NCBI GenBank assembly: GCA_039621445.1
Contig: CP154954.1
Span: 40,975,572 to 41,039,571 of the forward strand
Reading direction: 5' to 3'
Length of the DNA stretch: 64,000 bases
From: Euglena gracilis
Taxonomy: Eukaryota
Numbering within the stretch: the first letter of the stretch is position 1; every line of letters begins with the position of its first letter. The position numbers and the translations under genes were made by a program. The notes under the pieces are model-generated. The model was not told the DNA's origin. It saw only the letters and a program-made list of their open reading frames with translations, and ran no database searches. Below, one piece after another: positions 17,706-26,364 of this stretch.

Positions 17706-19820
17706 CGTACTCCCGGAGGGGGCGGCGACCTCTTGAAGGGGGGACAGGTGTCCTTGCCACCAGGGAAAGGTCAGACAGAGAGACAGACACGCACGCACAG
17801 ACAGACAGACAGACAGACAGACGGACGGACTTGCATGCATTGATGCATGCATGCATATAGGTATGTATGCATGCATGATGCACGCATCATTCATGCATAC
17901 CAGGGCGTTGCTTACCTCTCCCCCCCTTGTCCAACGACTGGCCTTGTCCCCCGGTCAGTAGCGATCTTTTTCCAGGTGATCTTTTTTTCAGACGTTCGCG
18001 TTCTTTTTCTTACAACTTTCATGGCGGATTTTGTACCGAGTTAGCCAGCGGGAACCTATACGGGAACCTATGTGTTGGTGCCTTGTTGATTGCCGCACGT
18101 TTCTCCCTTTTTTTCATCATGAATCTGAGAGTTGTGGCCATGTCAGGCAAAGGAAACTTTTTTCTTCACCTTGGGGCAAAGCAGGAGGAAAAAAAATTGA
18201 CCCGGTCTTGTCTAACGGCCACCCCCCAGTCAGTCGCGAAAATAGCGACCCCCCCCCCGGTCAGTAGCCATGTTCAGCGGTCGTTGGACAAGGGGGGGGT
18301 AGAAAATTTGATCCCCCCAGGGGGGACCCTGCCAGCCAAGCCTTTTTCCAGCTGGCAGCCTTTTTCCAGCCCCGGACCCCCATCAACGAGATTGATTTAT
18401 TTCCGGCCGCCCGAAGGGTGGCTAGACAGCAACGGATTTTTCACTTCCAGGAGGTACAGAAATGGGCCAGAAATGGGCCAAATAAGGCTTAGAAAAGGGT
18501 TGGCAAGGGCAAGGACATCGTTTTTTTTTTTGCATAATTCTTAGGAGGCATAAACTGCCCAAAAATTTAAACCCCCTCGAAGCGGAAAAGGAAGCGGAAA
18601 AACGCTTCCTAAAATGGCCTGTTTTTTTTTAGGGTTTTGGAAGAGGTACCGATTTCGGCCATTTCTGATTACATGTTTGGCTTGTAGTAACGAAGTTTTA
18701 AAAACTCCGAAAACAAGCTAAAACGCCACTTAAATTTTGAAATTCAGCCTAAATGAACGAAAACCCTACAAAAAATTCAAAGACAGCAATAAAGTGCAAA
18801 CACACACCTCATGTCGGCTGCCGCCAGACGCAGAGGAAGACGATCCCCCCTGCAAAGGGGGGAAAATAATAAACACAAAATATAGGAAGCGGCAAAAATG
18901 ACATTCCGCTTCAAATTCATGCATAGGTTACCAAAATCGACAGCAGAAGAAACTTGACTGAGGGAATACCAACACAAACTGAATAAAATTTTCTTAAAAT
19001 GACAACGAAGCGGAAAACCGCTTTAATAGGAAACAGAAAAATTATGCAATAAATCAGATAGAAGTAGATGCAATTCAAACAGTGAATAATAATGCCCACA
19101 AACATTCGTTCAGCATTTCCGGAGGGACGTGATGAACAGGCACACACTGAGCAGTAATCAACGACATTAAGTACACACTACATACCGCAGAAGACATGAC
19201 AGCCAGAAGAAATGGTATACAAATGTAACAAACAGAACACTACACACCTGTAATCAAAGTCGTCGCCTGAGGTACCGGGCCATCGTAAGCAGGTAGGAGT
19301 GAAAACCTGCAAAAAACAAGCGGGAAAGTGGCGAAGCGGGTTTCCGCTTCCTCAAAGCAAGGCAGATAAATTTGGTCTAATTCATACTGAACTGTACTGG
19401 TCTGAAACTACCATTGCCAACATCACTAAACGAACTGAATGCAGAAAGTAGTGAGGTCTGTGAAACTTGAACTACCCAACAAATATAAATCCCGCCTGAA
19501 ACAGTAGTGAGAAGATGCATTGTATCCCGAAGCACCATTAACCGTGCAAGTTGCGGATTTGTAACTATGATTCTCAAAACAAAGGTCAGTGCTGGAACAA
19601 ACCCCACAGCCCCCAGTTCCGCAGCCATGCCAAAGACAAGCACAAATGACAGACACGGCGAAATGGGTGGGTGTGGTGTGGTGAAGGCGTGCGCATGGTT
19701 GGGGACTGGGTGTGGGTGTGGGTATGGGTCTGGGTCCAGTCCAGGTCTGGGTCTCGCTTGTCCCTCCCTCGCTGGCGGCACCAGCCGCCCGCTGCCACCG
19801 CGGCTGCCGCAGCCGCCCGC

Positions 19821-24900: not shown

Positions 24901-26364
24901 TCAACGTGGTCTCTCCTCCTTTTTATCTGACTCAGCATAAATGTACATGTATTTCTGTTACAACTGATTCATTTGACCTTCCGTTAACTTCACGACCAAG
25001 GATGTCCAATGAAGCGGTATTCCGCTTCATTAGACAGTTTACTTTATTTTCTTCGTTGTGCTTCTGTCTCACGTTCACGTGTGTTTTTGCTACATGTATA
25101 TTATCTTTCTGTATCTGTGTGTTTCATGGAGAGATGACAACGTTCATCGTTTGTGGATGTAGTAGTTTTTCTAAAACCTTTTTGTTCAGTCGCATCTCTC
25201 CGTGAATCTGCTAAAAATTAATTTCGGAAATCATCGAAGCGGTTTTCCGCTTCATCTGTTTTGCATCCGAAACGGTGAAAAAATTTCTGTTAACACGTGT
25301 AACTCGAAATTTTGGCCTTTTTTTGCAGTATTTTTTGGGCACTTTGGATGCCACTTCAGTCAGTTTTATCATGGGCAGTTTGCGCCTCCTAAGTAATTGG
25401 CAGTTTTTTGGACATTTTTATGACTTCATTTTTTTGCCCCCGGTTCGACCCCAAGTCCGGCCCAGCTCCAGCCTGGGACACCTATGGGGCGGGGAGGGAG
25501 GGGGTCAGCCAGCAGCCTTTTTCCAGCCAGCTCATGTTTTCCAGCCCCTGAGCTGGACCCCCCGGGAGTCCTAAGCAACTCCCTGATGCATACATACAGA
25601 CATGCATTCATACATACAGACAGAGAGACGGACAGACAGACAGACAGACAGATATACGGACGGACGGACGGACGGACAGATGGACATACACAGGGATAAA
25701 AGTGAATTTATTCACCTTCTTTATTCTCCTCTGAGTTGCATGTCAAACAAAACAAACACATGAAAGCCTTTCTTTTGCAGTTTGATTTTTTTCTTCTGTT
25801 TTTTTAAAAAAGGAGGAACCAATTGTTTTTTTTTGCCCCGGTTCGGCCCTGCGGGGTCCTGGAACGGCGCCAGATCTGGGCAAACTCGGTCGACCGGGGG
25901 AGATTCGGCACTTAATTAGAAGGATAGGGTTAGGGTTGGGATTGGCGCGCCGAAAATTGGCACTTTTGAGGGACCCAGTTGGGCCGGACAGTGGGTTCCG
26001 TTTTGGGAACATCCTTGAATCGCCCGTTTTTCCCAAAAATGCCCGAATTCGACCCAAATTCCCCCAAAATTCGCCCGCTGTGCAGCCGAACTCCTCCCTG
26101 AATTCCGAAACGGGGGAGGCCTCCGGGAATCCGGTCGCGACCCTAACCCCATCCCTAAAAATAGCCCGACTTTCGCCTGAGGGTCGGACGCGGGGGATGC
26201 TACATGGACCACTCCCCTGGAGCTACTATTTGGCCGGCGGGCCAAGTAGTAGCTTGCTGCGATTTCTTCGATCAAATTTTTGCAGCTGTCTTCATTTTTG
26301 GCTGCCGAGAGCTTTCGCCACTCCTCGTCCCCGTGGGGGTGGGGACCCGCTCTCGGCTTCCAAA

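Follow-up and report, generated by a model that had tools for sequence, protein, structure and literature searches.

We analysed a 64,000-nucleotide stretch of the Euglena gracilis genome (contig CP154954.1 of assembly GCA_039621445.1, forward-strand positions 40,975,572 to 41,039,571), referred to below as the window. It contains a transposon, element A, in which a short palindrome of the type GAAGCG(G)-N4-(C)CGCTTC is dispersed over many sites (Table 1). Element A is a bona fide cut-and-paste transposon with terminal inverted repeats (TIRs) that start with CTTAGG and with a perfect 5-bp target-site duplication (TSD), TAATT. It holds a single intact gene on the minus strand, for which a GT-AG splice model gives seven exons, six coding introns and an open frame of 645 codons. 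Words from the element were present in 20 of 24 listed sequencing runs, and the 18 richest runs, which came from 16 studies under three organism labels, each held about half of the sampled words (shares 0.48-0.58); a single metatranscriptome entry had a share of 0.12, on which nothing can be based.

A preliminary description of this DNA had named 15 palindrome copies by their start positions, and all 15 proved to be real. Twelve match GAAGCG-N3-6-CGCTTC exactly, and a mismatch-tolerant scan added the other three (19007, 21237 and 23731), each with one mismatch. In the whole window the exact pattern was expected 0.02 times, and none of 100 dinucleotide-preserving shuffles reached 12 matches. 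Every exact match fell between 18591 and 25253, as did all 14 matches found with a 6-nt spacer and up to two mismatches (1.68 expected; at most 5 in a shuffle). The pattern scans detected no copy in the remaining 57 kb of the window, so that the palindrome is indeed confined to the element, as had been claimed. The half-site GAAGCGG was distributed likewise, with 14 occurrences inside element A and 2 outside. Beyond the 15 copies we found a copy with a 13-nt spacer and, at 18579, a tandem half-site.

The start-to-start distance among the 15 copies was 225-879 bp, close to the 230-900 bp first reported, and the copies lay in introns as well as in both flanks of the gene (1.3 kb downstream and 2.3 kb upstream). 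Four gaps between adjacent flank palindromes (23405-24617 and 19007-19333) measured 326, 326, 320 and 321 bp; this may be a preferred spacing, or chance. When element A was compared with the window by blastn, the only repeats were the palindromes themselves, with lengths of ≈ 21-30 nt, and a single direct repeat of 30 nt. The copies are thus isolated units in unique, unrelated sequence, which excludes tandem or segmental duplication as their source, in agreement with the preliminary description. No direct repeats flanked the palindrome copies in element A. Hairpins in general were not enriched in the element (3.36 per kb versus 5.89 per kb outside); the enrichment is limited to one particular hairpin. 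As an outside control, we searched public contigs for the exact 18-mer GAAGCGGAAAAMCGCTTC, which was found in at least 119 metagenome contigs and 12 viral contigs. The 131 contigs retrieved comprise 857,155 bases; 130 had one copy and one had two. None of them resembles the window, and clustered copies of the hairpin were not found in the metagenome and viral contigs scanned.

Palindromes occurred in introns 1, 3, 4, 5 and 6 of the gene, and neither in intron 2 nor in the 1,938 exon bases. The original claim of a copy in five of seven introns and none in exons therefore holds for the five introns and the exons; the number of introns is six in the coding region, with an intron in the untranslated region being possible. 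For 16 sites placed uniformly, the probability of such exon avoidance is about 0.005. Exons and introns also differ in base composition (GC 0.61-0.72 and 0.37-0.46, respectively). Coding constraint would yield exclusion from exons under any model of what the palindromes are.

The most informative result came from the comparison of element A with its siblings in the window. The terminal sequence CTTAGGMGG occurred seven times (0.82 expected), as three inverted pairs, which delimit elements D, A and B, and one solo end at 9326. All seven can be aligned in register, CTTAGG.GG being invariant among them, and perfect 5-bp TSDs flank all three complete elements. By these sequences, element A is one of at least four related elements in the window with CTTAGG-GG termini. 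Element B (2.7 kb, no gene) carries a palindrome of its own, TTGCGC-N4-GCGCAA, in 17 exact copies and one with a mismatch; window-wide this pattern gave 21 matches against 0.29 expected, 18 of them in B and three, degenerate, beside the solo end. The arms were identical in 17 of 17 copies, whereas the 4-nt spacers fell into five classes. Element D, 2.6 kb long and likewise without a gene, has the TIR most similar to that of A; of its nine sites, six lie within ≈ 820 bp of the left end and three within ≈ 460 bp of the right end, the intervening 1.3 kb being free of them. These sites contain the inner core GCGG-N4-CCGC, which is common to A, D and a further, array-bearing element (array element C). 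The core matched 35 times in the window (1.35 expected), nine times in D, eight in A, 15 in array element C and three elsewhere, so that 32 of 35 matches lie inside such elements. The solo end, CTTAGGCGGT (region 9326-10610), resembles the terminus of B and is followed only by degenerate TTGCGC/GCGCAA palindromes. No right end matching it was found in the window, and it is presumably older; degenerate copies beside it are as expected if sites decay once an element is dead.

The view that the arms are under constraint is supported mainly by comparison of the siblings, including the retention of arms around varying spacers in B. It bears on the earlier proposal of selection for a dimeric protein-binding site or for hairpins in single-stranded DNA: the constraint on the arms is supported, and the two mechanisms are inseparable here. 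Two side observations concern element B, in which some palindromes lie within 25-bp tandem units and a large internal inverted duplication occupies ≈ 53000-53500.

For alignment, the 15 copies in element A were oriented such that the loop is A-rich, which placed seven on the plus and eight on the minus strand. The consensus of the oriented copies was GAAGCGGAAAACCGCTTC. The blocks AAGCGG and CGCTT were invariant in all 15 copies, which were ascertained by their arms, and columns G9, A10, A16, A18 and C26 were at least 90% conserved. Arm conservation in A is thus partly circular; independent support comes from the contrast between loop and flanks, the half-site count and the sibling elements. 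The preliminary description had the arms conserved and the spacer and flanks variable. The arms are conserved and the flanks are unrelated, but the spacer is largely conserved and not free to vary (A16 and A18); it had seemed variable largely because orientations had been mixed. A slight asymmetry is apparent in the site: the base at the seventh stem position, G15, is invariant, while its partner is C in eight copies and unpaired in six of 14. The outermost copies face inward symmetrically, plus at the left end and minus at the right. Every arm contains a CpG, and the sites are CpG-rich (observed/expected ratio 1.45) compared with the non-coding DNA of element A (0.75), which is no more strongly depleted than its exons (0.78) or the whole window (0.68).

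The product of the gene was then characterized by sequence and structure searches. Exon 3 gave 115 matches among 1.84 billion representative proteins. Five long matches were rejected as unrelated repeat proteins (leucine-rich repeat, chitin-binding and others); the remaining relatives were exon-sized open reading frames (ORFs) of ≈ 60-370 residues. In an alignment of the window exon with 37 homologues (29-46% identity to the window exon, one at 93%), a G-Q-H signature was invariant. Similarity stopped at the same 'V(C)' in 37 of 37 homologues; in the window these residues are a translation of the splice donor GTATGT, and the homologue ORFs read the donor GTNTGY as 'V-C'. We infer that the position of the intron after exon 3 is old and shared among the homologues, which argues that the introns were not created by palindrome-bearing insertions. 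Introner-type insertions or miniature inverted-repeat transposable elements (MITEs) were accordingly rejected as the source of the introns. The family comprises about 110 sequence clusters in public data, all of them unannotated exon-sized ORFs, and by sequence it appears to represent widespread, intron-bearing, unannotated eukaryotic genes with an invariant G-Q-H. The exon-3 homologues occur in many assemblies, in each case only as exon-sized ORFs. Word-index searches returned one near-identical relative ORF for exon 4 and no longer homologue of either exon 3 or exon 4. Exon 4 had no match in viral contigs, a pattern derived from the homologue alignment gave 54 matches and no confirmed case in metagenome contigs, and the window holds no paralogue of the gene.

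None of the seven exon ORFs matched a Pfam family, nor did 10 longer homologues significantly; among 83 family members, ParB_N (PF02195) was hit in one, at an E-value of 0.042, below the cut-off. NCBIfam and PADLOC each gave 0 of 8. Single exons had no significant match among PDB sequences, and a family profile retrieved nothing relevant from PDB. AlphaFold2 with an 83-row alignment reached a predicted local distance difference test score (pLDDT) of 71 and was confident only at residues 110-228, with the N-terminal half at low confidence; from the single sequence the pLDDT was 40. Foldseek of the predicted model yielded no match at E ≤ 0.001 in PDB or BFVD. The best BFVD fold match was a Spo0J/ParB-like protein (E 0.13, template-modelling score 0.19), and an Atlas cluster with 19% ParB_N members scored 0.90, both sub-threshold; the Atlas search with exon 4 (best score 0.75) was uninformative. 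The designation 'ParB-like' thus reflects three sub-threshold leads that point the same way, and is a lead, not a finding.

What do the palindromes do? We give a probability of roughly one-half to the explanation that they are family-specific cis recognition sites for a transposon-encoded DNA-binding protein, analogous to the subterminal repeats of CACTA elements. The combination has the signature of cis-acting subterminal repeats because the motif is private, present in many copies and both orientations, kept in non-autonomous relatives, and subterminal in the small elements. By analogy with TNPA at CACTA/En-Spm subterminal repeats, a transposon-encoded protein would bind the palindromes, probably as a dimer and on duplex DNA. 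The prime candidate is the 645-residue product of A's only gene, or else a protein that an autonomous relative provides in trans. With many sites occupied, the element could be paired or compacted and its ends drawn together, or its transcription could be regulated.

Several points weigh against recognition by such a protein. Confinement of the palindrome was judged within the 64-kb window, from one copy of element A. Searches of the protein against Pfam, NCBIfam, PADLOC and PDB sequences and with Foldseek revealed no recognised domain for DNA binding or transposition. Recognition of the ends alone does not require sites throughout element A, five introns included. The stems of three to four copies are lengthened by unrelated flanking bases (18589-18610, 8 bp; 22861-22884, 9 bp; 24611-24640, 13 bp; 25008-25031, 10 bp), which speaks for a structural role or for a mutational process that makes palindromes. 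Finally, covariation between the arms did not exceed that of shuffles, 108 of 500 of which reached the observed score; since the six core pairs never vary, this is uninformative rather than negative, and it neither supports nor refutes structure.

The best-placed alternative, which we nevertheless regard as unlikely, is that shape matters and not sequence: the copies would adopt a hairpin or cruciform in single-stranded DNA when the element is transposed, repaired or replicated, or a stem-loop in its transcripts. Each of the 15 copies folds into a DNA hairpin (-3.5 to -15.9 kcal/mol), and in 13 cases no more than one of 200 shuffles folds equally well; the four lengthened stems fit this explanation. 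So does the fact that the families keep the same architecture (6-8-bp stem, 4-nt loop) with different sequences. However, the seventh pair is broken in six of 14 copies while its 5' base is invariant, and the loop bases are conserved. The invariant G with a broken partner, the conserved loop and the lack of covariation lean towards sequence-specific recognition. A stem of 6-7 bp is also weak for cruciform extrusion in duplex DNA, and the TIRs and 5-bp TSD would point to duplex cut-and-paste rather than to a single-strand mechanism. A strand-specific RNA signal is unlikely, as the introns contain both orientations (three and two). Hosts of snoRNAs or miRNAs were rejected, there being no Rfam match at any palindrome (14000-26000, E ≤ 1), and terminator-like viral hairpins were rejected because both orientations occur within introns.

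We consider it quite improbable that the palindromes are a non-functional by-product of a mutational process linked to the element, such as fold-back or templated repair or the insertion of tiny palindromes, that persist outside exons. That the copies are isolated 18-30-nt units in unique sequence, some of them extended into longer perfect palindromes, would be accounted for; their absence from exons needs coding constraint only, and the degenerate copies by the solo end show that sites decay. Such a process would, however, have to act inside the element only and to generate another sequence in every sibling family. It would also have to leave ten core positions invariant in 15 of 15 copies (a number subject to ascertainment bias, as the copies were found via their arms) and 17 of 17 arm pairs perfect around variable spacers in B, and to do so without the flanking direct repeats that insertion would leave.

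A bolder reading, to which we attach about as little credence, makes A, B and D members of an undescribed eukaryotic TIR superfamily, marked by CTTAGG termini and 5-bp TSDs, with a ParB/DndB-like 'G-Q-H' signature protein in place of a DDE transposase, loading at parS-like palindromes all along the element and in its introns. The protein would bridge or condense the element for transposition, or be a nuclease or recombinase, and arms and protein would co-diversify by family. Least probable of all is that the palindromes serve a factor of the host, for instance a transcription factor that recognises CGG, a reader of chromatin or of methylation, or a silencing nucleator, and themselves act as enhancers, insulators or targeting signals: three families do share the inner core, every arm does hold a CpG at sites richer in CpG than the surrounding non-coding DNA, and the sites do spread along the whole element and not just its ends, but only three of the 35 core matches lie outside elements where sites near host genes would be expected, the core of B differs, and the outer arm bases are family-specific.

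Among known systems, the recognition-site explanation finds its closest parallel in CACTA/En-Spm. There, TNPA binds reiterated, family-specific motifs able to form stem-loops, and a separate, catalytic transposase acts at the TIRs; the motif binder is encoded by the element and poorly conserved, and the motifs are retained in non-autonomous derivatives (PMC2613891). The CACTA/En-Spm motifs so described resemble ours in being short, family-specific, stem-loop-capable, present in many direct and inverted copies and placed inside a TIR transposon (PMC2613891). Element D, with purely subterminal sites, and A, with 15-16 copies (seven plus, eight minus), conform to this. On the other hand, all seven termini begin with CTTAGG and not in the CACTA...TAGTG fashion, the TSD is 5 bp rather than 3 bp in three of three complete elements, and in A the motifs extend over the full 6.9 kb, filling introns of the gene as well. 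Within the window, to which the search was confined, Pfam detected no tnp2/Transposase_21 domain on the seven exon ORFs of A.

Bacterial ParB-parS systems serve partition and spreading, with palindromic centromere-like sites bound by a ParB dimer. Element A is similar in having several ≈ 16-18-bp palindromes beside a gene whose product has a G-x-H-R-like motif; it differs in its eukaryotic host, its intron-bearing gene and its being an integrated transposon rather than a replicon. No gene for a ParA partner is present, there being no second coding region in 18540-25393. These data do not place element A among ParB-parS systems. Transib elements have a 5-bp TSD, termini beginning with CAC and a RAG1-like transposase. 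Element A shares the TSD length; its termini are CTTAGG, and Pfam found no RAG1-like transposase on its exons. The hAT elements have 8-bp TSDs, and PIF/Harbinger elements have 3-bp TSDs (TWA) and genes for a transposase and a Myb-like protein. Both were rejected, hAT because the TSD is 5 bp and an 8-bp reading gives non-identical flanks, and PIF/Harbinger because the 5-bp TSDs lack the TWA consensus and the gene is single. A foldback element or MITE was rejected for A in view of its 22-bp TIRs, unique interior and intact gene; that description fits array element C better.

The repetitive extragenic palindromic (REP) sequences and bacterial interspersed mosaic elements (BIMEs) are likewise short, dispersed palindromes in alternating orientation, and the REP ones are reported to serve as protein-binding sites (PMC2817692). 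In the REP/BIME-RAYT case the REPs lie between genes genome-wide and are moved by a hairpin-recognising Y1 transposase, whereas the palindromes studied here lie inside TIR- and TSD-bounded eukaryotic elements. In piggyBac/piggyBat, a separate domain of the transposase is reported to bind repeats that lie next to the TIRs, in internal or subterminal positions, and that tune activity (PMC11707139). Those elements differ from A in their TTAA target and in having few sites, near the ends, as against ≈ 16 sites throughout A. The termini, TSD length and protein of A match none of the superfamilies tested. Keyword searches of open-access text, which excluded supplements and are weak evidence of absence, revealed neither an account of the protein family nor one of elements that combine CTTAGG ends, a 5-bp TSD and palindromes of this kind.

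Reiterated recognition motifs in transposons are an established idea; this particular element group, the orphan protein and the occurrence of the site all along the element, five introns of its gene among them, are not established. Sites within introns of an element's own gene are unusual, and this placement suggests that a high density of sites is needed over the full length of the element and not at the ends only. Four related elements within 64 kb have common ends and integration chemistry and different internal palindromes, and one of them retains a gene. If the palindromes are recognition sites as proposed, the window offers a compact natural experiment on the maintenance of private recognition codes by transposon families. 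If arms were matched to protein clades across the genome, a new group of transposons and a new module for DNA recognition could be defined, since the protein has no detectable known domain and the termini and TSD match no tested superfamily.

Table 1. Elements, exons and palindromic sites discussed in the text (positions in the window)
Feature	Positions	Strand	Details
Sibling element D	14409-17005		TSD TAAGA; 9 GCGG-N4-CCGC palindromes, subterminal
Host exon	17439-17705	+	Part of adenylate/guanylate cyclase catalytic domain; PF00211, E 7.5e-5, 22.8 bits, cut-off 21.9
TSD of A, left copy	18535-18539		TAATT
Element A	18540-25393		Complete TIR transposon, 6,854 bp, holds all palindromes; TIR pair and TSD
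Left TIR of A	18540-18561	+	CTTAGGAGGCATAAACTGCCCA, 22 bp
Tandem half-site and palindrome	18579-18608	+	Half-site GAAGCGGAAAAG, then palindrome 18591-18608; stem 8 with flanks
Copy with 13-nt spacer	18886-18912	+	GAAGCGG...CCGCTTC
Palindrome copy	19007-19024	+	1 mismatch
Palindrome copy	19333-19350	-	Exact, 7-bp stem
Exon 7	19821-19904	-	GT-AG model; with stop codon
Palindrome copy	20026-20042	+	17 nt, intron 6
Exon 6	20104-20472	-	GT-AG model; Lys/Glu-rich
Palindrome copy	20540-20557	-	Intron 5
Exon 5	20686-20916	-	GT-AG model
Palindrome copy	21237-21254	-	1 mismatch to search pattern, weakest hairpin, intron 4
Exon 4	21291-21950	-	GT-AG model
Palindrome copy	21985-22002	+	Intron 3
Exon 3	22128-22489	-	GT-AG model; conserved G-Q-H module
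Exon 2	22667-22804	-	GT-AG model
Palindrome copy	22864-22881	-	Intron 1; stem 9 with flanks
Exon 1	23032-23125	-	GT-AG model; ATG at 23125
Palindrome copy	23405-23422	+	Upstream flank of gene
Palindrome copy	23731-23748	-	1 mismatch
Palindrome copy	23976-23993	-	
Palindrome copy	24296-24313	+	
Palindrome copy	24611-24640	+	13-bp stem, core 24617-24634, -15.9 kcal/mol
Palindrome copy	25008-25031	-	10-bp stem, core 25011-25028
Palindrome copy	25236-25253	-	Closest to right end
Right TIR of A	25372-25393	-	20/22 positions match left TIR
TSD of A, right copy	25394-25398		TAATT
Sibling element B	52396-55126		TSD CAGAT; TIR CTTAGGCGGCCTAACTCGCACTTA; 17 exact TTGCGC-N4-GCGCAA palindromes

The surroundings of element A are themselves repetitive. 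Microsatellites of the (GACA)n/(GGAC)n type and ATGC-rich stretches flank it (17771-17838/25578-25697 and 18339-18376/25514-25551), and the direct repeat CCTTTTTCCAGC is present on both sides, which suggests that A inserted into another repeat. Element A begins ≈ 0.8 kb downstream of the host exon that encodes part of a cyclase domain; elements D and A, on either side of this exon, possibly lie in introns of that gene.

Array element C (≈ 57020-59945) is a different, foldback-like element. At 57020-57310 and 59660-59945, units of 43-54 bp based on the palindrome GGTTGGGCCGCGGCCGGCCGCGGCCCAACC, which contains the GCGG-N4-CCGC core, form arrays on either side of an internal satellite. The ends of the element look inverted, of the GATGTCACGGGAGGTTGG type, and another left portion apparently begins near 62100. 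Within the element, 57843-59600 is an interstitial telomere-like (TTAGGG)n satellite with TTCGGG variants and repeats of ≈ 204 bp and ≈ 660 bp.

Other tandem repeats were noted elsewhere in the window. About 25 copies of a 19-bp unit, itself the palindrome CCATCATGACCCATGATGG, lie at 40261-40721 beside 163-bp and 216-bp tandem repeats (39744-41163). Approximately six copies of a 30-bp unit, AAGTCCACTTTACCCCAAATGGACTTGGCC, with the inverted pair AAGTCCA/TGGACTT, occupy 10975-11148. The window also contains many poly-C/poly-G tracts of 12-14 nt or more (e.g. 17208-17225, 17510-17528 and 26667-26706) and long (GT)n/(CA)n runs at 14142-14367 and 38521-38872.

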